Of a stretch of 24,000 nt of DNA, positions 4,801-24,000 are shown in pieces. Where the stretch lies: NCBI GenBank assembly GCA_004356895.1, contig SMWK01000250.1, positions 17,164-41,163 on the forward strand. The letters are read 5' to 3'. The translations under genes were made by a program, and so were the position numbers. Below the pieces are notes generated by a model, which was not told where the DNA came from, did not search any database, and worked only from the letters and a program-made list of their open reading frames with translations. Source of the stretch: Gammaproteobacteria bacterium. Lineage in GTDB: Bacteria > Pseudomonadota > Gammaproteobacteria > Pseudomonadales > Azotimanducaceae. The first letter of the stretch is position 1, and the number at the start of each line of letters is the position of its first letter.

Positions 4801-5848
4801 TTTCGAAGCAGAGATAGATGTCTTGTTTAACCTGTCTGCGCAAGTCGAATTCCTTCATCGCATCGTCAAACGACCAGCAGATCACGGCTGGGCCGACGGG
4901 CACGACATCTTTATGTGTCCAGGGTCTGGCGACCAGTCCCAACCGGGCTCGGATGTCCAACAGATCGTCTGAGTATCGGTTTTCCGCTTTCGAAATCATT
5001 TCTGCAACGGCCAACCAATCTTCGAACTGGTCGGTGGCTACGATCTCGAGCTTCGTTGCGTTCCCTGTTTCCCGCCTGCGACGTCTTTCCAGAATGTCAT
5101 CGAGCTCGGAAACGTTGTCTACCTGGCGTACTACCTCCCCGATAAAGTTCGTGCTGATGCTCTCGCGATGTTTCTCCAGGAGATCGAGACCTTCGAAATA
5201 CATCATCTGGACCGCATTTGTCCCCGCATCGCGCGCTCTCACCAGGAGTTCGGTGGCCGCAACATTGAAGAATTGTTTGCTGATGCGTTCCATCGCTCGT
5301 CGCACGACTCGACGCATGCTTGCGCGAACCTCTGTGGCGTCCTTTTCGTTGATGCGCCGATCACGGAAAAGCCTCTCCGGAATTTCTCCACCACCACCCG
5401 CTGCGGAGTTGGCGTCTTCACCACCATCGAGTTGCTCACTCGACGCCGAAATTTCGTCTTCGTAAGTCTCGCCCACACCCGCGCCCGAGCGCGACAGCAT
5501 GCCCGAGGCGATTGCGAACTCGATCAGACAATCGAACGCGTCGTCCGGCAACCCATCATCGAACCGTACGCCGATACCGTTGCCTGAATCGAGCATCCGG
5601 GCAATCTTGGCCTGGGTACGAAAGTGTAGCTGTCCAGTCGGTGTTGCTACAGAAAAGTGCAAAGCAACGGGGTCACCCGGATGAGGCTGTGCGCCTGTCG
5701 CCGAGAGCGAGCGCGAACCACCTGCACCCGTTAGCAACATCCCGTCATGGCAAAAATCTCGAATGCTGCACAGCCACGAACGCCCCTGTTCAGGGTGAAC
5801 AAGGGCGGAAATGGAGCTGGGTTGCCTGGGGTAATGGCGTCGATTCAA
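1799..5848 (-). CDS. 1349-aa multidomain c-di-GMP protein: N-terminal PilZ, DUF1631-like central region, GGDEF (GGDEY), EAL (EIL)
   Basis: TTG start at 5848; no ATG/GTG lies between it and the upstream in-frame TGA. PilZ signatures RRHYPR and DFCHDG (RxxxR / DxSxxG with Cys for Ser) in aa 1-105. By memory, aa ~170-890 resemble the DUF1631 family. GGDEF domain has LNRKEFERF and GGDEY (2849-2863) with no RxxD I-site. EAL domain has EIL (2447-2455), FEITE, DDFGTG, EYVE and QGF. The 3' end overlaps the argF 3' end by 12 bp. Confidence 0.85.
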   Translation of the reverse strand: MNRRHYPRQPSSISALVHPEQGRSWLCSIRDFCHDGMLLTGAGGSRSLSATGAQPHPGDPVALHFSVATPTGQLHFRTQAKIARMLDSGNGIGVRFDDGLPDDAFDCLIEFAIASGMLSRSGAGVGETYEDEISASSEQLDGGEDANSAAGGGGEIPERLFRDRRINEKDATEVRASMRRVVRRAMERISKQFFNVAATELLVRARDAGTNAVQMMYFEGLDLLEKHRESISTNFIGEVVRQVDNVSELDDILERRRRRETGNATKLEIVATDQFEDWLAVAEMISKAENRYSDDLLDIRARLGLVARPWTHKDVVPVGPAVICWSFDDAMKEFDLRRQVKQDIYLCFESVLVPMLGNLYSALDEMLQESKMFPSVEELRESLMRSSIRRTPSGVRVEPEAYQEMESSVREAAMAADGIATHSRVDHDPFSEPGARELYSTARNILGLKRRTQQILGHGRDKMLAAPDAGVGETFRSSDILEAILQIERELGDAPLSDRRLKPRLIEILRDQHGDRKGFTEEDYDTLDMMENLVDSLQEDSFLTEGIRDWIQRLEITLNKLAARDPGFLRHTPERPHSAVQMLNQLARLGNTRDVREGIDRDVGRRVDELLQKVIHEYDENPEVFSEVVDELNPLIDKQTRAYRGNVERTVRTSEGQQKLARARRAVLEEMEGRLGSKEVPDLLLQMLNPGWRNLMVHTHLRRGVDSNEWRDQLATVDQVWGQLSGEIEPGSEAFVDPDKLLKRVVDGLNNISFDPSKRTPLIMSLSAALVGDSTGHKTPVAATRVEPSGVPAALGLEGLLPETDPVIESDDEDVRQTWAKAVERARRMQIGEWLAASDREGRPLILTVAYIGDDYSSFVLVNRKGIKTRELTLQDMADGLHEGQITSLDDYDLPLMERASQRMLENMHNQLAFQASHDDLTQLLNRKEFERFVEKAIQGAKTKEIQHALLYLDLDQFKIINNTSGHSAGDELLKLVADTLTKSVADKTAKVARLGGDEYGVLVEQVETSEARDLAEKLLEVIREQRFKWDGRMYTISASMGLVFLDQTTESVEKSMQFADEACYTAKDAGRNRVHEYELGDTAMMRRHGVMEWVTELDKALDEDRLILNCQRIAPIDTDGTSSIPTDTHYEILLTMLDELGDTMPPTDFIHAAETYNRMTIIDRWVIERVLAWMAEHRSDLDHFGGFAINVSGHSVNDATFPDFVLEQFAKSQAPTGKVCFEITETAAIANLENAVDFMNRMRIIGCQFSLDDFGTGLSSYSYLRNLPVDFVKIDGVFVRDIANNPGDYAVVRSINEIGHFMGKKTIAEYVEDDEVLDRLKEIGVDYAQGFRIEKPLLLSEFQISLLQ

Positions 5849-5919
5849 CGATGCAGTATCCGTTCCGCGAAAACGTCTGGACCTTACCCGATATCATTGT
5901 CGAGGTCACGTCAGAGGCC

Positions 5920-7008
5920 CTATGCTTCGATAATGATCCCGTCACGCCCTTCGGATTTAGCGCGATACAACGCTTGATCTGCTCGCTGGATCACATCTTC
6001 AACACGTTCACCTGATTTAAAGGTCGCAATGCCGGTGGAAACCGTTAGACGGAAAGCTTCGTCCCCCGGTCCGTCCACGGGCACCGCGCACATCTGGCGG
6101 GTGCGTTCTCCCAACCGTTTCGCCACGTTCGATGCAGTATCTGCATCTGCGCCCACGAGAATCATCAAAAATTCTTCGCCGCCAATCCGAGCAACAAAGT
6201 CCACCGAACGCACAACACCTGCGGCGAGATCTGCGAAGTCATGTAACACACGATCGCCAAACAGATGGCCAAAGCGATCGTTCACCTGCTTGAAGTGATC
6301 GAGATCGCAGTAACACAGCGTAAAGCCTACGTGACCACGATCGGCAAGTGCCTTCTGGCGCTTGAGCACTTCCATTATATAGCGCCGATTGTAGAGGCCC
6401 GTGAGTTCATCGCGCATCGCAAGTTCCGCGAGCTGCTCCATAGCTTTGTTGAGTCGATCGCGCCGGCGGTCGAAAGCGGAACGCAACGCGGTTACTTCTC
6501 CGGCCATGTACGCCATGGCGGCCAACATTACGGTAAAGGCCACTGCGATGACCGCCTCGAAAGCGAAATCTGTGTCTCCGTAACGAATCAACAACAAATT
6601 GCCCCCGAGATAGGTCAACCACGTTACCAAGCTAACGAACAACATCTGTCGACGGTCGAGGAGTAGAGCCGAATATAGAATACCGAACAGCGGTGCAACG
6701 AGAATTAACAGTCGCACGGGATGCGGCACCAACAGCGCAGTTGCCACCACCCCAAGGTTGCACCATACGGCCTTAGTCAGCGTGAGTGCACTCGCCTCAA
6801 AACGTTCTTGTCTCACTCCATCGGCTAGTAACAACGCGAACAATCCGGCTATCCAGATGCCAATCAGCACAGGAAAGGCCGGGGTTGTGACTTGCAGGTA
6901 GCCATACTGAACCAAGCCCAACCAGAACAGCGCGTAGACTGACGCGCCGAACATGATGACGGCGATACGCCCGTATCTCTGCTTGACTGTCCCGCTGACG
7001 ATTAACAC
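5920..7008 (-). CDS. membrane-anchored diguanylate cyclase (GGDEF) with I-site
   Basis: GTG start. The N-terminal ~170 aa are hydrophobic (about 5-6 TM segments). Then RDELTGLYNRRY, I-site RSVD five residues before GGEEF (6169-6183), and a YRAKSEGRD tail. Only 71 nt upstream of the PilZ-GGDEF-EAL gene on the same strand. Confidence 0.88.
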   Translation of the reverse strand: MLIVSGTVKQRYGRIAVIMFGASVYALFWLGLVQYGYLQVTTPAFPVLIGIWIAGLFALLLADGVRQERFEASALTLTKAVWCNLGVVATALLVPHPVRLLILVAPLFGILYSALLLDRRQMLFVSLVTWLTYLGGNLLLIRYGDTDFAFEAVIAVAFTVMLAAMAYMAGEVTALRSAFDRRRDRLNKAMEQLAELAMRDELTGLYNRRYIMEVLKRQKALADRGHVGFTLCYCDLDHFKQVNDRFGHLFGDRVLHDFADLAAGVVRSVDFVARIGGEEFLMILVGADADTASNVAKRLGERTRQMCAVPVDGPGDEAFRLTVSTGIATFKSGERVEDVIQRADQALYRAKSEGRDGIIIEA

Positions 7009-7083
7009 TGGAATGCCTTGAGTCGTAGGTAGCTCGCATTCTAGGGGGCGAAAGGGCGGAGCACTTCACAACCTGGTGGCGCA

Positions 7084-9041: not shown

Positions 9042-12038
9042 ATGCAAGAAACTCATATGCAAAAAACTCCTATCCAAAAAGTCGGGGACAACACGGGTCA
9101 GGTTCAGACCCAACATCAACCGGCTGCAGAATCCTTGCCACCCTCCATCGCCGCAACGGCGCCGGGACAACTCAAAGTCATCAAACGCAATGGTGGAGTC
9201 GTTGCGTATTCAGACGACAAGATTACCGTCGCGATGACCAAAGCGTTTTTGGCAGTGGAAGGAGGTAGTGCCGCAGCGTCGCCGCGTATACGCGAAATGG
9301 TGATAACGCTGGTAGATCAGGTGAGCTCGACGTTCAAGCGGCGCTTTCCGTCCGGCGGAACGATCCACATCGAGGAAATTCAGGATCAGGTCGAACTCGC
9401 TCTCATGCGCTCGGGCGAGCACAAGGTTGCGCGTGATTATGTGTTATATCGCGAGGAACGCGCCAGGGTGCGAGCCGAACGCATCGAGGAAGAAAGCGAC
9501 GATCAGGAGAGCGCCACCTCCAATATTCAAGTCGTATCTCCCAGCGGCGAACGATCCCCGCTCGATATTGAACGCATTCGCACGCTGGTGATGGAAGCCT
9601 GTGTGGACCTTGCCGATGTAGAAGGCGAGCGGATCATCAGCGAATCGATGGCTAACATGTACGACGGCATCTCCGAGGAAGATGTCGCAACCTGTCTGTT
9701 GATCACCGCGCGTACGCTGGTAGAAGAGGAGCCCAGTTACACCTATGCGACGGCGCGGCTCCTGCTCGATGGGTTGCGCGCCCAGGCATTTAGATTCCTT
9801 GACGTAAACACGGCCGGTGGGCACCGCGCGATTCAAGGCGATATGGCAGAGTTGTACCCCGTTGCCTTAACAGCTTTTATCCGCCGCGGGATAGATCTCG
9901 AGTTATTGAACCCCGAACTCGCGAGCTACGATCTCGAACGTCTCGGCAAGGCACTCAACCCAGAGCGCGATCTACAATTCACCTATCTCGGTCTGCAAAC
10001 GCTCTACGATCGCTATTTCATCCACTCAGACGGAGTCCGTTTCGAGTTGCCCCAGGTATTCTTCATGCGTGTGGCCATGGGCCTCGCACATGAAGAAGAC
10101 GACCCGAACGCACGCGCCATCGAGTTTTACAATCTACTTTCCTCGTTCGATTATGTGAGTTCGACACCGACGTTGTTCAACTCCGGTACTTTACGTCCCC
10201 AACTCTCATCGTGTTTCCTGACCACCGTGCCAGATGCGCTCGATGGCATCTACAGCGCCATCCGTGACAACGCCTTGCTTTCCAAGTGGGCCGGTGGGCT
10301 CGGTAACGATTGGACACCCGTGCGTGCACTCGGTGCCTATATCAAAGGCACGAACGGTAAATCCCAGGGTGTGGTGCCGTTCTTGAAAGTCGTAAACGAC
10401 ACAGCCGTCGCTGTGAACCAGGGCGGCAAGCGTAAGGGCGCGGTTTGCTCGTATCTGGAGACCTGGCATCTCGACATCGAGGAGTTTCTGGAACTGCGCA
10501 AGAATACCGGAGACGACCGGCGTCGAACCCACGACATGAATACGGCCAACTGGGTTCCCGATCTTTTTATGAAGCGTGTGAGCGAAGACGGTGAGTGGAC
10601 CCTCTTCTCACCAAACGAGGTAGCAGATCTGCACGATCTCTACGGGCGCGCTTTCGAGAAACGTTATGAAACCTACGAGGAGATGACTCGCAGCGGCGAA
10701 ATTTCTCTTTTCAAACGTCTGCGAGCTCAGGATCTCTGGCGCAAGATGCTCTCGATGCTTTTCGAAACAGGGCATCCCTGGATCACCTTCAAGGACAGCT
10801 GCAACATTCGTTCGCCGCAACAGCACACCGGTGTGGTGCACTCATCCAACCTATGTACCGAGATCACACTCAATACCTCGCATGAGGAAATTGCCGTGTG
10901 CAACTTAGGTTCGATCAATCTCCTGCAACATGTCGAGAACGGCGAACTCAACCTGAAGAAGCTCAAAGCCACCGTGCGTACGGCAGTGCGTATGTTGGAC
11001 AACGTGATCGACATCAACTACTACTCCGTGCCGCAAGCACGTACGTCGAACATGCGTCATCGGCCCATCGGGCTCGGCATCATGGGTTTCCAGGATGCGC
11101 TCTATCAACTACGCATCCCCTACAGCAGCGACGAAGCTGTTACCTTTGCCGACCGTTCCATGGAAGCGTTCAGCTATTACGCGATCGATGCCTCCTGCAA
11201 GCTCGCAAAGGAACGCGGCAGTTATGCGAGCTTCTCCGGCTCCCTGTGGAGCCGTGGCATCCTGCCAATCGATTCGTTGAAGCTCCTCAGTCAGGAGCGA
11301 GGCGAAAAGTATCTGGAAGCCAATTTCGATACAACGCTCAATTGGGACAAGCTGCGCAAGAAGGTTCAGATCAACGGCATGCGCAATTCCAATGTGATGG
11401 CGATCGCCCCAACTGCAACCATCGCAAACATCGCGGGTGTTACCCAGTCCATCGAACCCACGTATCAGAACCTCTATGTGAAATCGAATCTCTCCGGCGA
11501 GTTTACTGTTGTGAATCCCTACATGGTGCACGACCTCAAGCGCCTGGGTCTCTGGGACAAGGTGATGGTGAACGACCTGAAATACTACGATGGCAGCCTA
11601 CGCTCTTTAGATCGAGTGCCTGACGAACTGAAACAGCTCTACGCAACTGCCTTCGAGGTGGAACCGCGCTGGCTGGTGGATGCTGCGAGCCGGCGCCAGA
11701 AGTGGATCGACCAGGCGCAGTCGCTCAATCTTTATATGGCCGGTGCCTCGGGTCGCAAACTCGACGTGACCTACCGTATGGCCTGGTTGCGCGGCTTGAA
11801 GACCACCTACTACCTGCGCGCGCTCAGCGCAACAAGTGCGGAGAAATCGACGCTGGATAAAGGCACGTTGAACGCTGTCTCGATGAATAGCGGCGTTGAG
11901 TCTCCACCGGAACAGGCAGCAGTTGCACATGACGGGATAACGGCACAGCTGATGAACGAAGACATTACCGTAGCCGAACCTGCCGCCGTACCGCTTGCCT
12001 GTTCGATCGACAACCCCGACTGCGAAGCCTGTCAGTAA
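9042..12038 (+). CDS. nrdA: class Ia ribonucleotide reductase large subunit, Pseudomonas-type with N-terminal ATP-cone plus second degenerate cone
   Basis: ATP-cone LKVIKRNGGVVAYSDDKITVAMTKAF. Catalytic motifs SSNLCTEI and CNLGSINL. C-terminal redox-shuttle cysteines CEACQ. GGGAG lies 13 nt upstream of ATG 9042; ATG 9057 is an alternative start. Confidence 0.95.
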   Translation: MQETHMQKTPIQKVGDNTGQVQTQHQPAAESLPPSIAATAPGQLKVIKRNGGVVAYSDDKITVAMTKAFLAVEGGSAAASPRIREMVITLVDQVSSTFKRRFPSGGTIHIEEIQDQVELALMRSGEHKVARDYVLYREERARVRAERIEEESDDQESATSNIQVVSPSGERSPLDIERIRTLVMEACVDLADVEGERIISESMANMYDGISEEDVATCLLITARTLVEEEPSYTYATARLLLDGLRAQAFRFLDVNTAGGHRAIQGDMAELYPVALTAFIRRGIDLELLNPELASYDLERLGKALNPERDLQFTYLGLQTLYDRYFIHSDGVRFELPQVFFMRVAMGLAHEEDDPNARAIEFYNLLSSFDYVSSTPTLFNSGTLRPQLSSCFLTTVPDALDGIYSAIRDNALLSKWAGGLGNDWTPVRALGAYIKGTNGKSQGVVPFLKVVNDTAVAVNQGGKRKGAVCSYLETWHLDIEEFLELRKNTGDDRRRTHDMNTANWVPDLFMKRVSEDGEWTLFSPNEVADLHDLYGRAFEKRYETYEEMTRSGEISLFKRLRAQDLWRKMLSMLFETGHPWITFKDSCNIRSPQQHTGVVHSSNLCTEITLNTSHEEIAVCNLGSINLLQHVENGELNLKKLKATVRTAVRMLDNVIDINYYSVPQARTSNMRHRPIGLGIMGFQDALYQLRIPYSSDEAVTFADRSMEAFSYYAIDASCKLAKERGSYASFSGSLWSRGILPIDSLKLLSQERGEKYLEANFDTTLNWDKLRKKVQINGMRNSNVMAIAPTATIANIAGVTQSIEPTYQNLYVKSNLSGEFTVVNPYMVHDLKRLGLWDKVMVNDLKYYDGSLRSLDRVPDELKQLYATAFEVEPRWLVDAASRRQKWIDQAQSLNLYMAGASGRKLDVTYRMAWLRGLKTTYYLRALSATSAEKSTLDKGTLNAVSMNSGVESPPEQAAVAHDGITAQLMNEDITVAEPAAVPLACSIDNPDCEACQ

Positions 12039-14592: not shown

Positions 14593-16940
14593 AGTTTAGG
14601 CGCAACGTGCACTTAGTTTGCTGGGCACAGGTTGTAGGTCTCGCGCTCAGTTTTTATGCGACTGCCGAGGATCTGAGCTACACGGTCAAAGGCTTAACGC
14701 GCCCCGCCGAGATTATCGTAGACACCTGGGGTGTCCCGCACATTTACGCCCAAACGCACTACGATGCGTTTTTTGTACAAGGCTTCAATGCGGCACGAGA
14801 CCGCTTGTGGCAAATTGACCTATGGCGCCTCAGAGGTCTCGGAGAACTCTCGGCGGTACTCGGCGCCCGTTACCTCGAGCAGGACCGGGCCGCCCGGTTG
14901 TTCCTCTACCGGGGCGATATGTACCGTGAATGGCTCGCTTATGGCAGCGACGCAAAACGTATCGCCGAAGCCTTCACCGCCGGTATCAACGCTTATGTAA
15001 ACACGCTTTCCCAACATCCAGAACTCATACCCCCTGAATTCGAATTGTTAGATTACGCACCGGCAATCTGGTCACCAGAAGACGTCGTGCGCATTCGCAG
15101 TAACGGTCTCTGGCGTAACGTTGTGAGCGAAGTGCGCAGGGCGCGAATTGCCTGCAAACTCGGCCTCGACGCAGCTTCGCTGTGGAAAGTACTCGAGCCT
15201 CAATGGGATACAAAAATACCCGCAGGGTTGGACCCATGCGACATACCAGAGGGTGTACTGGATCTCTATCTACTCGCTAAAACACCCGTTCGCTTCGACG
15301 AACCAGTCCCTGATCTGACCCAGGCCTGGGCCGATGAACTCAGCGCAGACCTCGGCAGTAACAACTGGGTAGTGGCAGGAAACCGCACCGCCACGGGTCG
15401 CCCCATCCTTGCGAATGACCCTCATCGGGGTCACGCCGTTCCGTCGCTTCGCTACATCGCCCACCTGGTTGCACCCGGGCTCAATGTAATTGGCGCCGGT
15501 GAACCAGCGCTGCCCGGGATTTCAATCGGTCACAACGAACGGATAGCTTTCGGGCTCACAATCTTCCCCATCGACCAGGAAGACCTCTACGTCTACGAGC
15601 GTGTTGAAAATGGTTATCTCTACCAGGGTAGAGTAGAGCTTCTCAAGACGTTAACAGAAAGCATCGCTAGCAAAGATGCGCCCGACGAACTCGTGACGCT
15701 CGAGTTCACCCGCCATGGTCCGGTTGTGTTCAAAACCGAAAACCAGATTTTTGCAGTGCGCGCTGCCTGGCTCACTCCGGGTATGGCACCTTATTTTGGC
15801 AGTGTGGAATACATGCGAGCGCAAAACTGGCGCGAGTTTGTAGCGTCGCTCAACCGTTGGGGCGCTCCTTCGGAAAATCAGGTATACGCAGATGTGGATG
15901 GCAACATCGGATACAAACCCGCAGGGCTATTTCCGCGCCGTGACAACTGGGACGGTCTGTTGCCGGTGCCTGGCGATGGTCGCTACGAATGGAACGGCTA
16001 CTTCGATATGGATGTGCTCCCCGAAGAGTACAACCCGGAGCGGGGATTCACCGGCACAGCAAATGCAATGAGTCTGCCTGACGATTACCCAATCGCGACA
16101 CACCGGGTAGGCTTCGAATGGTCAGCACCCTGGCGCTACAAGCGGCTCAAGGAAGTGCTGCGAAGCCAATCAGCGCACACGCTCAAAAATTCCTTGTCAT
16201 TACAACGCGACTATCACTCCATGTTGGCGCGAAAAATCATCGTACGGCTGCCGTCGCCGGAGAACCTGACGGTTAATGCACAAACTGCTGTCGCTATGTT
16301 GAGTAACTGGGATGGAAACCTCTCGGTGGATTCGCCCAACGCGGCACTCTATGCAGTGTGGTTCTACCGCCACCTCCAGCCGGAACTTGCGAAAGCAATC
16401 GCGCCGCTCGCACCGGACCTGCTGAAACCTCTAGACACTCAAGCCGTTCTGGAAGCTTTGCGTTTTCCGCTTGGTCAGGGAGTGGCCAGCGCAACCCTTG
16501 GCCCAGCCTTCGTTGAAACCCAACAATTGCTCGGAGAGGATCCATCCGCCTGGCGCTGGGGAGACCTGCACCAGATCCAATTCGTACATCCCTTGCAGCA
16601 TCGGGCGACAGACGAGTTGGCGAACGCGATGATCTATCCGGCTTACCCTCGTGGGGGAAGCGGCAATACCACCAACAGCACGAGCTTTCGGGCGGATGAT
16701 TTTCTCGTCCGCTCAGGCGCGTCTTTCCGCATGGTTCTCGACGTTGGCAATTGGGACGCCGCAAAAATGACCAACGCACCCGGGCAATCTGGAGACCCAC
16801 GGTCCTATTTTTATGACAACTTGTTGGAAGGCTGGGCCACCGAAGCCAGCTTTCCGTTGGTCTATTCCCGTAAGGCGGTACTCGATAACAAAGTGTTGAG
16901 CATCAAGCTCGAACCTCTGGACGACAAGAGCAGCGATTAG
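14589..16940 (+). CDS. secreted Ntn-hydrolase of the penicillin acylase / acyl-homoserine-lactone acylase family (S45)
   Basis: Signal peptide MKFRRNVHLVCWAQVVGLALSFYATA. DTWGVPHIYA and FVQGFNAARDRLWQID in the alpha subunit. Autoprocessing site G-SNNW (Ser codon 15357-15359), followed by ANDPHR. An in-frame TAG at 14574-14576 rules out a longer N-terminus. Confidence 0.9.
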   Translation: MKFRRNVHLVCWAQVVGLALSFYATAEDLSYTVKGLTRPAEIIVDTWGVPHIYAQTHYDAFFVQGFNAARDRLWQIDLWRLRGLGELSAVLGARYLEQDRAARLFLYRGDMYREWLAYGSDAKRIAEAFTAGINAYVNTLSQHPELIPPEFELLDYAPAIWSPEDVVRIRSNGLWRNVVSEVRRARIACKLGLDAASLWKVLEPQWDTKIPAGLDPCDIPEGVLDLYLLAKTPVRFDEPVPDLTQAWADELSADLGSNNWVVAGNRTATGRPILANDPHRGHAVPSLRYIAHLVAPGLNVIGAGEPALPGISIGHNERIAFGLTIFPIDQEDLYVYERVENGYLYQGRVELLKTLTESIASKDAPDELVTLEFTRHGPVVFKTENQIFAVRAAWLTPGMAPYFGSVEYMRAQNWREFVASLNRWGAPSENQVYADVDGNIGYKPAGLFPRRDNWDGLLPVPGDGRYEWNGYFDMDVLPEEYNPERGFTGTANAMSLPDDYPIATHRVGFEWSAPWRYKRLKEVLRSQSAHTLKNSLSLQRDYHSMLARKIIVRLPSPENLTVNAQTAVAMLSNWDGNLSVDSPNAALYAVWFYRHLQPELAKAIAPLAPDLLKPLDTQAVLEALRFPLGQGVASATLGPAFVETQQLLGEDPSAWRWGDLHQIQFVHPLQHRATDELANAMIYPAYPRGGSGNTTNSTSFRADDFLVRSGASFRMVLDVGNWDAAKMTNAPGQSGDPRSYFYDNLLEGWATEASFPLVYSRKAVLDNKVLSIKLEPLDDKSSD

Positions 16941-18876: not shown

Positions 18877-19518
18877 TTAATACATCTGCTCGCTTTCCAG
18901 ACTCATCTGGATCGCGTTTTCCTTTTCTTCGACTTCCTGCTCCAGTCTCCTTACCAGGCTGTTGGCATGATTCAGGCTTCTGTTTAGACGGTCCATCAAA
19001 TACACGGTGGCACCACTAATAGCCCCCGCAAATAAAAGCAGACTCAAGTGGTCCCATACCCAACCAGTCCAATTTTCAGGTAATCCGTCGGATTCTGGTT
19101 GTAGCTGCAGCCAACCATTTTGCAAGAGAAATGCGACACTGGAAATCGTAAACAGACAGATAGCGATACTAACAATCGCGCCTCTGGCGCCAATCAACGC
19201 ACTCACGAGAAACGTGGCAAGTACGAAACATTCGATGTGGGCACCATCAAAGCCATCGTCCAACAATTCTGTAACGCCAACGAAGTAAAAAACGCAGAAC
19301 AAGACGTAAGCCCCTACATCGGGCAATTTTTTCTGGAAGTAAATAACGCCGATTAAGAGGAACTCGGCACCGAGGTGGACATAGCGATAGGGTTGGTCTT
19401 GAACAAAGGACCAGGCAACTACTAACGCGCCTACTCCGACTAATACTTTCAGCGAGATCAGGCTCACCTGGGCTCTCAGGGCCGTCAGATCGTCATGGAT
19501 GATCGAGGCGGTATTCAA
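18877..19518 (-). CDS. N-terminal membrane portion of the same sensor kinase (multi-TM plus coiled-coil linker)
   Basis: TTG start. About 5-6 hydrophobic segments, then a heptad-like linker LNHANSLVRRLEQEVEEKENAIQMSLESEQMY that ends at TAA 18877-18879. Confidence 0.6.
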   Translation of the reverse strand: MNTASIIHDDLTALRAQVSLISLKVLVGVGALVVAWSFVQDQPYRYVHLGAEFLLIGVIYFQKKLPDVGAYVLFCVFYFVGVTELLDDGFDGAHIECFVLATFLVSALIGARGAIVSIAICLFTISSVAFLLQNGWLQLQPESDGLPENWTGWVWDHLSLLLFAGAISGATVYLMDRLNRSLNHANSLVRRLEQEVEEKENAIQMSLESEQMY

Positions 19519-19612: not shown

Positions 19613-20470
19613 CTAGTCGAGTTTCAGCACCTTCCTTGCGTTGTCCCGCAAAAACTTCGGCCAGACTTCGTCTTTGAAAGCCACGTCTTTCATATCGGTC
19701 ATGATCCGTTCAACCGACAGCCCCATCGGGAAATACCCAGCATAAATGACCTTGTCCGCCCCTCGTGAGTTTGCGTACTTGATGATCGCCTCCGGGTAAT
19801 ACTTGGGCGCGAACGCAGAAGTGGAGTAATACAAGTTCGGCCATTTGAGCATGAGTTTCACCGCCAGATCTTCCCAGGGCTCGCAACCGTGACGGGTGAC
19901 AAACACGAGTTCCGGAAAGTCGTACATCACTTTGTCGAGCAATTCCACATGCTGCGGCCACATGGGAAAACGAGGGCCCGGAACCCCGACACACGAAAAA
20001 ATAGGCACATCGAGTTCCACGCACTTGGCATAGATCGGATACATCAGCGCATCGTTAATCCCAACCTGGGGGTTGTATCCGGCATTAAACGCACCGAACG
20101 AACGCACCCCAAATTCCTCGTACTGACGCACCATGTTACGCACGCCCTCCATACCCGTGTTCGGATCCACCGAGCCCTGAGGCACAAAACGATCCGGGTA
20201 GTCGGTCAGTGCCTTACGACTCACATCACCGCCCACGCCGATGAGTCCTATTTCGATATCGAATCGGTCCATTTCGTGGAGCGTGACCGAAATCGGGTCT
20301 TTGCTTCCGTAGAGTTCCTTGGGAACGTTCTTGAACATGTACTCCACTGGAAAATCGAAATCGGTAGAACCGTCTTTGAGCTGTGCACGGATGAAGTCGT
20401 ACTGGGCAAAGTCGCTTGCGGGAAAACCGATCATGGTATCGACGATCCCGAGATTCTGAGGCATGGCCAT
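19613..20470 (-). CDS. amidohydrolase-2 (PF04909-like) family protein, paralog 1
   Basis: Start moved to ATG 20470 (MAMPQNLGIVDTMIGFP), with AGAGG 10 nt upstream. The track's 36-aa extension lies inside the palindromic element. Family-like segments FVTRHGCEPW and the C-terminal FLRDNARKVLKL. Confidence 0.8.
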   Translation of the reverse strand: MAMPQNLGIVDTMIGFPASDFAQYDFIRAQLKDGSTDFDFPVEYMFKNVPKELYGSKDPISVTLHEMDRFDIEIGLIGVGGDVSRKALTDYPDRFVPQGSVDPNTGMEGVRNMVRQYEEFGVRSFGAFNAGYNPQVGINDALMYPIYAKCVELDVPIFSCVGVPGPRFPMWPQHVELLDKVMYDFPELVFVTRHGCEPWEDLAVKLMLKWPNLYYSTSAFAPKYYPEAIIKYANSRGADKVIYAGYFPMGLSVERIMTDMKDVAFKDEVWPKFLRDNARKVLKLD

Positions 20471-20475
20471 GGTTG

Positions 20476-20736
20476 AGGAACCTCTGATTAATTCTCGAAA
20501 GCTCAGAGCATATCGCGCCTGTCCTGCCAAGGCGCGTACCGCGGGTAATGTCGAGCACATTGCCAAGGTGCGCAACACCGGCAGGGCAGGCGCGATATGC
20601 TCCTGAAAGGCACGGACTACGGGGCCTGTGGTGTTGTTACGATTCTTGGCAATGTGCTCGACATTACCTACGAACCGCGCCTAACCACAAGCCCCGTAGT
20701 CCGCGCTGAGCAAACGAGAATTAATCAGAGGTTCCT
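20476..20736. repeat. 261-bp composite palindromic, MITE-like element (modules A-B-C-B'-X-C'-X'-A')
   Basis: A 20476-20497 / A' 20715-20736 is 22/22. B 20506-20528 / B' 20580-20602 is 22/23. C 20544-20567 / C' 20645-20668 is 24/24. X 20613-20625 / X' 20691-20703 is 13/13. TTG lies on both flanks (20473-20475 and 20737-20739). Confidence 0.75.
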
Positions 20737-20740
20737 TTGC

Positions 20741-21955
20741 CTACATCCCATAAAGTGCGCTTTGAAATAGCGAACAGGTTGCGTCCCGTGGAATCTCGTC
20801 GCGCGTTAACGGCTGGTTGACCTGCTCAGGGGTTGGTCCATATTGATCGGCAAGGGGCTTGAGTTTGTCGAGATCGAAGTTGTAGAGCGACGCTGCGTTT
20901 TCACCGAAAAGCATACGCCGCTCACGCTCTGCTACGTCGGCGAAGGTCAATCTCAGGGACTCGAGGTTGTAGGGGAAAGTCCCCTCGTAGTGCGGGTAGT
21001 CATTCCCCCACAACACGTTCTCTGCGCCGATCTCAGCTAAACCATCGAGTTCGGCTTTGCTTGGGAAGCTCGCGCCATACCAACAGCTACGCTGAGCGTA
21101 CTCACTCGGCAGATCTTTCAATACCCAGTCACCATCGTAGTGCATTTCGCCGATCGCACCTGCTTCAATACCCATGTGAATCCGGTCGAGCTGCTTCAAC
21201 ATAGGGCTCACCCACGCGCACCCGGATTCGGTAAGGATGTATTTCAGTTTCGGGAAACGTTCGAACACACCACTCATCAGCAGGTGGCGATAGCCCGCCT
21301 GGCAATAAAAAGTTACCTCCGATATCCACAAGGCTTCGCCGACCAGGCTCCGCCCATAATCGGGCGACCCTTGGCCCGAATGCTGATTGATCACGAGATC
21401 GTGATCCTGGATGGCGGCAAACAGCTTGTCCCAAGCCGGATCGTACAGCGGAGTCAACCAATTACAATCAGGAGGAATCAACGGCAACAACACTCCGCCA
21501 CGTAAACCCGCTTGTGCAATGAACTCAATGTCTTTAATCGCTTCGTCAAGATCATTCGGTAAGATCAAGCCAATTCCAGCTCGCCGGTCCGGATCCTCCG
21601 CGCAGAAATCTTTCAACCAGCGGTTATGCGCACGAATTCCAGCGAGGGCAAGTTCGTAGTCCTCAGGTCTGGGCGGTTGTGCAATGACGATGCTCTTGCT
21701 AAAAAAAGGCGGTACGGTATTCGGGAACACGACCTCTCCCACAACCCCCTGACCGTTCTGATCGTTGGTGCGGATCTCGAGATCCCAGTTCCGCATCTTC
21801 TTGCTGCCGTAGTGTTCTTGCGCTGGATTCTTGTATCCACCACGCCATTCGTCGAACGCCTGTCGATAGGTCGGATCGAGACATTCCCGATATTGTGCGT
21901 GACTACCACCCGCATGCGTATCGGCGGTAATGAGAATGTAGGGATCGTTGCTCAC
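20741..21955 (-). CDS. amidohydrolase-2 (PF04909-like) family protein, paralog 2
   Basis: GTG start with GGGAGGTGG 7 nt upstream. N-terminal ILITADTHAGG, C-terminal LWGNDYPHYEG and MLFGENAASLYNF, all typical of this metal-dependent hydrolase/decarboxylase fold. Confidence 0.85.
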   Translation of the reverse strand: MSNDPYILITADTHAGGSHAQYRECLDPTYRQAFDEWRGGYKNPAQEHYGSKKMRNWDLEIRTNDQNGQGVVGEVVFPNTVPPFFSKSIVIAQPPRPEDYELALAGIRAHNRWLKDFCAEDPDRRAGIGLILPNDLDEAIKDIEFIAQAGLRGGVLLPLIPPDCNWLTPLYDPAWDKLFAAIQDHDLVINQHSGQGSPDYGRSLVGEALWISEVTFYCQAGYRHLLMSGVFERFPKLKYILTESGCAWVSPMLKQLDRIHMGIEAGAIGEMHYDGDWVLKDLPSEYAQRSCWYGASFPSKAELDGLAEIGAENVLWGNDYPHYEGTFPYNLESLRLTFADVAERERRMLFGENAASLYNFDLDKLKPLADQYGPTPEQVNQPLTRDEIPRDATCSLFQSALYGM

Positions 21956-23698: not shown

Positions 23699-23726
23699 GA
23701 CGGTAAACTCTAATTAGTTCTTGTCC

Positions 23727-23858
23727 GGAAATTCGCTCCTGCGAATTTTCCTCCGTCGGTTTTCTACGAAAACCTCGCATTTTCCTTCGGAAAAAGTAGC
23801 GAACGCCGTGGGCATCCCTGCCCTCCACTAGTGCGGTCTCAGAATGCTCCGCATTCTG
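23727..23858. terminator. array of four short hairpins in a convergent intergenic gap
   Basis: H1 23727-23751 GGAAATTCGC-tcct-GCGAATTTTCC has a one-base bulge. The other three are perfect: H2 23758-23774 GGTTTTC-tac-GAAAACC, H3 23780-23794 TTTTCC-ttc-GGAAAA, H4 23840-23858 CAGAATGC-tcc-GCATTCTG. Confidence 0.35.
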
Positions 23859-23865
23859 GACAGCA

Positions 23866-24000
23866 CTATCTACGAAGATCCCGTAACATACCTTTCAACG
23901 CGTCAATAAACGCAAACGGTTGGTCCAGGAACAGGTGGTGTTTGGCATTTTCGAGTACAACCGCGGGAAAATCCTGGGTAATGAGCTCCCTCATGTATTC
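23866..24000 (-). CDS. alpha/beta-fold hydrolase, C-terminal 44 codons only (5' end outside window)
   Basis: The minus frame reads EYMRELITQDFPAVVLENAKHHLFLDQPFAFIDALKGMLRDLRR*. This is the usual C-terminal catalytic-His segment (..i.nAGH....E.Pe.f...l..fl). Stop TAG at 23866-23868. Not in the ORF track because there is no start in the window. Confidence 0.5.
   Translation of the reverse strand, partial: EYMRELITQDFPAVVLENAKHHLFLDQPFAFIDALKGMLRDLRR

Follow-up and report, generated by a model that had tools for sequence, protein, structure and literature searches.

What occupies the 270-nt gap between two amidohydrolase genes of one operon, and how did it come to lie there? The locus was analysed within the window, by which we mean the whole 24,000-nt stretch of DNA under study. 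A preliminary description had seen in the gap a block of nested inverted repeats, and had offered two readings of it: a non-autonomous mobile element, or a structured RNA switch gating translation of the downstream gene. The explanation that we favour, at a probability of roughly 0.88, is that the block is a non-autonomous MITE with ends matching those of IS5-group insertion sequences, inserted by a transposase supplied in trans into the 10-nt spacer between the two coupled genes. The MITE accounts for the operon gap, and also for a spurious extension of the downstream reading frame to 321 aa.

The block and its predicted fold

The features of the locus are as follows (window coordinates; elements of the block are given without strand).

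20477-20735: body of the MITE, GGAACC...GGTTCC, 259 bp, with the family-level ends found in L011-L045; missing from the empty alleles L002, L003, L004, L008 and L009
20476-20497: terminal inverted repeat, arm A, matching 20715-20736; its first 18 nt are the left end of the L053 IS5-family insertion sequence
20715-20736: terminal inverted repeat, arm A'; on the mRNA it follows the stop codon of the upstream gene at a distance of 4 nt; mostly deleted in L001 and L007
20501-20506: GCTCAG, inner extension of the outer stem, pairing with CTGAGC (20706-20711) past an AAA/AAA internal loop; conserved in relatives of the nested subfamily
20506-20602: hairpin 1 of the MFE folds, with stem B (20506-28 / 20580-602) and the self-folded module C as its tip
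20544-20564: tip of hairpin 1 (module C), GGTAATGT at 20544-51, loop CGAGC at 20552-56, ACATTGCC at 20557-64
20610-20706: hairpin 2 of the MFE folds, with stem X (20610-32 / 20684-706) and the self-folded module C' as its tip
20648-20668: tip of hairpin 2 (module C'), GGCAATGT at 20648-55, loop GCTCG at 20656-60, ACATTACC at 20661-68
20471-20476, minus strand: right flank on the mRNA, TCAACC, from element to ATG; TCAACC or TCGACC in other filled alleles
20736-20740, minus strand: left flank on the mRNA, GCAAA, from stop codon to element; the expected GCACTAA minus CT
19613-20470, minus strand: downstream 285-aa amidohydrolase gene (PF04909), its ribosome-binding site now supplied by the element
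20741-21955, minus strand: upstream 404-aa amidohydrolase gene (PF04909), stop codon TAG at 20741-43

All four repeat pairs of the preliminary description were recovered. Arms A and A' are complementary at 22/22 positions, a value reached by 0/100 shuffles, and the terminal repeat lengthens to 34 nt at 88% through GCTCAG (20501-06) and CTGAGC (20706-11). B and B' match at 22/23 positions and the C and C' cores (20544-67 and 20645-68) at 24/24, with an extended C/C' match of 48 nt at 81% (20530-77 / 20635-82); X and X' match at 21/23 positions over the intervals listed. The limits first given for the block, 20476-20736, correspond to the family-level body plus one flanking base per side. The TTG trinucleotides do lie on both sides of it, at 20473-75 and 20737-39, and an AGAGG (complement of 20481-85) is indeed present in arm A, 10 nt before the ATG on the minus strand. 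The stop codon is the complement of 20741-43 and the ATG that of 20468-70. Neither the terminal repeat nor the C core has a second copy within the 24-kb window.

The element is non-coding, the sole open reading frame across it being a chance 5' extension of the downstream gene from a GTG at 20578. The downstream frame stays open for 36 codons into the element (20471-20578, minus strand), and gene callers could mis-annotate the resulting 321-aa ORF. No promoter-like or terminator-like site was found in the sequence of the element, so that transcription terminating inside the block, raised earlier as an objection to occlusion of the ribosome-binding site, is unsupported by sequence. Two candidate protein sites were rejected by eye: a sigma-54 promoter in module C, where the GG/GC spacing is unsuitable, and an IHF site in the terminal repeat, which departs from the consensus.

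Module C is a near-palindrome, GGTAATGT-CGAGC-ACATTGCC, and C' is its exact reverse complement. Because of this near-palindromy, both modules are self-folded, C at the tip of hairpin B and C' at that of hairpin X. In the MFE structure the outer stem (A:A' plus GCTCAG:CTGAGC) meets two hairpins of about 100 nt in a three-way junction; B:B' and X:X' close the hairpins, and each hairpin is capped by a self-paired C or C'. For the mRNA strand the free energy is -177.6 kcal/mol, with z = -15.9 relative to dinucleotide shuffles; z is about -16 on either strand, and the same architecture was obtained from the other strand and from DNA parameters. It had been proposed that a long C:C' helix competes with the two hairpins or joins them in a loop-loop pseudoknot. 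With C and C' self-paired in the MFE folds, such a helix is unneeded. In the window the apical loops, CGAGC and GCUCG, could pair with each other; by eye, those of the related elements L037, L038, L023 and L040 are not complementary. A C-C' pseudoknot or kissing-loop contact was rejected on this ground, and the complementarity of the loops, lost in relatives, is taken to be a by-product of inverted duplication.

Filled and empty alleles of the junction

At least 15 public contigs, some with the element and some without it, encode the identical 285-aa protein. The empty sites that the preliminary description had called for were found on five of them (L002, L003, L004, L008, L009), where the junction reads TAG-GCACTAAACC-ATG and measures 10 nt. 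The 6-nt empty junction GCAACC that had been predicted was never seen: in more distant relatives the junction is 8 nt long (GTTCAAAC) at 95–96% identity, 24 nt at 97% and 3 nt at 85%. Since junctions are tight in these relatives, the insertion is the derived state.

Filled alleles fall into several forms. The element is complete in L005, where it differs from the window by 3 SNPs, and L054, with a 99% identical protein, has a 274-bp variant. Three different internal deletions, with microhomologies of 2–4 nt, are present in L001, L007, L006 and L010, the ATG-side arm being kept in all of them. The flanks of the alleles are 97.2–99.9% identical to the window. Over the 858 nt of the downstream gene, the empty alleles L003 and L008 differ from the window by 0 SNPs and the filled allele L001 by 12, and one SNP, 49 nt upstream of the stop codon, shows linkage to whether the site is empty or filled. 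The element thus segregates as an insertion polymorphism in a recombining population, present in some members and absent from others, and microhomology deletions across its hairpins are eroding it. That deletions recur may be due to instability of the palindrome, to selection relieving occlusion of the ribosome-binding site, or to both.

An assembly artefact was considered as a source of the palindrome, since palindromic sequence can mislead assemblers and the element contains the break points of several short-read contigs. We attach next to no probability to it: the full element was recovered in three independent assemblies (window, L005, L054), and microhomologies of 2–4 nt at the deletion junctions are too short for k-mer path artefacts.

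Two further observations concern contigs that carry parts of the element. Five short-read contigs from Logan (L066-L070) share one end point, CTGAGC in the element, 36 nt upstream of the ATG, which suggests that the element breaks assemblies, either as a repeat or through allele variation. In L006 (GCA_022566475.1, JADFIW010000176.1, 2135-2250) the deleted element joins the 285-aa gene to another upstream gene, for a MaoC dehydratase on the opposite strand, with a left flank of TTAA. Either recombination between two copies rearranged the DNA at the element, or the MAG contig is chimeric.

Other differences between alleles were noticed in the neighbourhood. An in-frame TAG at 18877-18879 (minus strand) splits a MASE11-PAS-histidine kinase-receiver gene of the window into ORFs of 213 and 505 aa; the gene is whole in the relatives L001 and L002 (772 and 727 aa), and the TAG is possibly a nonsense mutation or the mark of a pseudogene. 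At about 23721-23875, between a glyoxalase and an alpha/beta-hydrolase gene, an indel of about 155 nt is present in the window and L003 and absent from L001 and L002. It contains several small hairpins, may have short inverted ends (TAGTTCTTGTCC / GGACAGCACTA), and may be another small mobile element. L054 (ENA ERZ21829507 contig_69) has extra mobile elements at 5650-7074, 10977-11405 and 14910-15338, encoding one 474-aa DDE transposase (PF13701/PF01609) and two 142-aa Y1_Tnp proteins. As these mobile genes are missing from the window, the region is regarded as an insertion hotspot.

A dispersed family with IS5-type ends

The terminal sequence of the element, GGAACCTCTGATTAATTC, bounds elements of 37–340 bp at 35 further loci in distant Proteobacteria (L011-L045). 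Among species-representative genomes, the 20-mer GGAACCTCTGATTAATTCTC was found in 25 stretches from Beta-, Gamma-, Delta- and Alphaproteobacteria, four of which belong to a single betaproteobacterial chromosome (CP070643.1). Its hosts include Burkholderiales, Microbulbifer, Methylomonas, Thiodiazotropha symbionts, Chromatiales and Povalibacter, as well as Deltaproteobacteria, Desulfobacterales and Methylocystaceae. A second pattern, anchored on the terminal repeat, gave 10 more stretches from metagenomes. In most matches the inverted ends are accompanied by 4-bp direct repeats CTAG, TTAG, TTAA or CTAA, that is, YTAR. The end, of 18–20 nt, is common to all members of the family, and interiors vary by subfamily. 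Single genomes hold full, half and minimal (55-nt) forms, matching the deletion series seen at the window locus.

Copies of the family adjoin unrelated genes, at gene ends or between convergent or divergent genes. Many of them abut stop codons, because YTAR includes TAG and TAA. In L037 and L038 a simple ORF scan placed the present end of an adjacent ORF within the terminal repeat. L037, 282 bp long, lies at another locus, with a clean CTAG/CTAG duplication and a B stem nearly identical to that of the window; it comes from the SMUY01 metagenome assembly, which is also the source of the empty allele L009. Two small insert blocks are common to L037 and to the amidohydrolase-locus allele L054, which points to gene conversion between copies, or to the window version being a deletion derivative.

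Further copies in the genome itself were sought in about 20 kb of extra flanking sequence and none was seen, which makes one copy in the roughly 44 kb covered (window, L054, L078). A BLAST search with the whole element against plasmids returned chance matches only. A full-text search of the accessible literature for the terminal-repeat sequence retrieved no papers, and a proteobacterial MITE family with these ends appears undescribed.

A possible source of the transposase was reached through L049, a sequence of a viral collection in which the same end is followed by MEQNQQFSFADAEYANKG. Used as a query, it led to L053, an insertion sequence of 1205 bp on plasmid pUP202 of Methylomonas sp. UP202 (NZ_CP123898.1, 52817-54021). 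It starts TTAA|GGAACCTCTGATTAATTCC and ends ...CAGAGATTCC|CTAA; its left end is identical to that of the MITE over 18 nt, and the insertion sequence has TTAA on one side and CTAA on the other. Against NF033581, 'IS5 family transposase', for which the cutoff is 140, its transposase reaches 283 bits, and this membership together with the N-terminus SFADAEY is typical of the IS5 group. A 4-bp YTAR duplication is the textbook signature of IS5. The transposase gene of L053 is frameshifted or contains a stop, around TTTTTATAAAGCC.

The resemblance between the two elements is confined to their ends. The right end of L053 (GGAATCTCTGAAAAACAG) matches the MITE end only partly, and its own left end only partly, whereas both ends of the MITE resemble the L053 left end. 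The MITE encodes no protein, and its interior has no significant similarity to the L053 insertion sequence or transposase. An origin of the interior from the 3' end of a transposase gene was rejected, as tblastn searches with the L053 transposase and with E. coli InsH against 13 elements gave only E >= 0.3. No IS5 partner was seen in about 44 kb of the genome itself (window, L054, L078). The mobile-element reading of the preliminary description is supported by three kinds of evidence: empty sites, 35 dispersed relatives with the same ends, and an IS5-family insertion sequence with the same end. We infer that an IS5-family transposase acting in trans was the mobilising enzyme.

The two Y1_Tnp genes of the 99% related L054, situated near the element, could be taken to suggest a host palindrome of the REP/REPIN type, moved by a Y1 (RAYT-like) transposase. 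Like the assembly artefact, this origin is given next to no probability, as the ends match an IS5-family insertion sequence and the family makes 4-bp YTAR duplications. REPINs are not known to make such duplications.

Which target received the element is less directly readable. The 3-bp TTG target duplication first proposed does not hold: the family duplicates 4 bp of YTAR, and the CAA/TTG repeat, real in the window, is absent from other filled alleles at this locus. The flanks are CAAA...TCAA in the window, where only a 3-nt CAA is repeated, and GTAA...TCAA and GTAA...TCGA in L054 and L001. In the empty allele, the point of divergence of the flanks coincides exactly with a canonical CTAA (GCA-CTAA-ACC). 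The left flanks of filled sites are GCAAA (window, L005) and GTAA (L001, L054), and each corresponds to GCACTAA minus one small deletion, of CAC in the case of GTAA. Derivation of the right flank, TCAACC or TCGACC, from CTAA needs a 1-nt deletion and a substitution, and TCAACC would be a degenerate remnant of the target duplication. Most probably, then, the element was inserted at CTAA in TAG-GCA-CTAA-ACC-ATG, and its flanks eroded later. Against this origin, the window has no clean 4-bp duplication, and many changes are required for alleles with flanks about 99% identical. It is possible that the insertion occurred instead into a GTTCAAAC-like junction in a sister lineage and was then transferred by homologous recombination.

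Conservation of the fold was examined in an alignment of eight full elements (window, L005, L037, L038, L023, L040, L042, L043). The three-way junction comprises 87 pairs, and 93.5% of the cells are paired. Compensatory double changes were found in 34/87 pairs, as compared with 2–9 in slid controls, and 0/500 shuffles reached the observed value. They affect 14 of the 23 pairs of the hairpin 1 stem and 13 of the 22 pairs of the hairpin 2 helices, and they keep the fold across Gamma- and Betaproteobacteria. Stems B and X drift gradually from one element to the next yet stay paired, and the hairpin tips stay similar in sequence. This shows that pairing is under constraint, for which RNA, single-stranded DNA (during transposition or replication) and palindrome-preserving repair are all possible sources.

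A purely junk interior leaves this strong covariation of the hairpins unexplained, which counts against our main explanation. The two-hairpin interior might instead be a functional nucleic-acid structure, serving either mobilisation or a role in RNA, so that the changes reflect selection on structure in a selfish element, beyond maintenance of the palindrome; we consider this unlikely. If it served mobilisation, the interior would be needed for efficient IS5-type transposition, for instance to bring the ends into synapsis by folding back, or to present the conserved hairpin tip GGYAATGT...ACATTRCC to a binding protein. If it served in RNA, it would hold stop and start codons together, and insertions into operons would be tolerated. 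The covarying three-way junction raises the modest question of why the interiors of MITEs keep structure.

Consequences for the downstream gene and known relatives

Insertion of the MITE into the 10-nt spacer of two translationally coupled amidohydrolase genes would have removed the old stop-start junction, leaving the AGAGG of the terminal repeat in the position of a ribosome-binding site for the downstream gene. In the filled allele the 285-aa gene has no SD-like motif other than the one in the terminal repeat. The preliminary description had pointed out that the outer stem would bury this site, and in silico it does. For the SD region, P(unpaired) is predicted to average 0.00 in the full element and in L006 and L010, which have kept both terminal repeats, 0.11–0.20 in L001 and L007, where A' is deleted, and 0.25 in the empty allele. 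At equilibrium the AGAGG would be paired with the other terminal repeat, and the non-coding interior would fold, as RNA or single-stranded DNA, into the three-way junction. With the SD region predicted to be paired in this way, the insertion probably lowers or restructures expression of the 285-aa gene, without designed regulation.

The same pairing, an AGAGG held within a perfect 22-bp stem of a very stable fold kept by covariation, is what an evolved structured-RNA switch, or translational operator, burying and releasing the downstream ribosome-binding site would look like. Several results make such a switch very improbable. Rfam contains no family matching the element at the gathering threshold, and an E-value threshold gave only sub-threshold microRNA-hairpin noise. 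The same type of element adjoins unrelated genes in varied arrangements. At the amidohydrolase locus itself, empty alleles and alleles devoid of A' (L001, L007) exist in the population, so that the stem is not under purifying selection there. Moreover, C and C' are exact reverse complements, so that wherever one strand forms a U-G pair the other has a C-A mismatch, and neither strand is favoured as the folding one. No ligand pocket or alternative pairing was identified. On this evidence the switch reading of the preliminary description, as an evolved regulator, is not supported: an element moved by IS5-family transposases and polymorphic in the population is of an ordinary kind, not a dedicated RNA switch.

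A MITE may also have been co-opted after insertion, if its outer stem juxtaposes stop codon and ATG so that coupling survives across 270 nt, and if the fold is kept locally for that purpose. The stop codon and the ATG lie 4 and 6 nt, respectively, from the base of the outer stem, as judged from the sequence and the predicted fold, the end carrying the ribosome-binding site is retained in all deletion alleles, and SD motifs are weak in both empty and filled alleles, which suggests that the gene depends on coupling. We nevertheless hold co-option to be very improbable. Alleles without A' exist, and known ribosome footprints imply that a terminating ribosome would open only the first few pairs of the stem and leave the CCUCU paired with the SD.

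The reading of the block as a MITE inserted between coupled genes leaves two mildly unusual features: an interior of two hairpins kept by covariation, and a natural series of alleles at a junction where translation is coupled. This series (empty, full and three internal deletions) could be used to test the effect on the downstream gene and the decay of an insertion. The invariant end of 18–20 nt, found across four proteobacterial classes, is usable for repeat masking, for explaining contig breaks and for finding the IS5 partner.

Intergenic palindromic MITEs that are co-transcribed with their neighbours and fold into long hairpins are represented by the Correia elements of Neisseria and by ERIC/IRU in enterobacteria and Yersinia. 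They can alter the stability or translation of neighbouring cistrons, occur in full-length and internally deleted forms and, in the case of Correia elements, duplicate TA. They have no sequence relationship to the element of the window and consist of one long hairpin, whereas the window subfamily forms a three-way junction with two hairpins.

The closest described element is MITEPsy1 of Pseudomonas syringae pv. phaseolicola, whose ends read GGAAGGTCTGAAAAAGCC and which duplicates 4 nt of target, CTAG or YTAA (Bardaji et al. 2011, PMC3189936). It derives from ISPsy2, of the IS5 family, and has been mobilised experimentally, presumably by an IS5-family transposase acting in trans; its authors note that relatives seem widespread (PMC3189936). 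Like the window MITE, it is short and non-coding, with terminal repeats of the same class, its end GGAAGGTCTGAAAAAGCC being identical to GGAACCTCTGATTAATTC at 12/18 positions by our own count. In contrast, MITEPsy1 is 100 nt long and lacks the double-hairpin interior, whereas the window family has a different, very conserved end and interiors of up to 340 bp. Mobilisation has been shown for MITEPsy1, whereas the window MITE is known here from its sequence.
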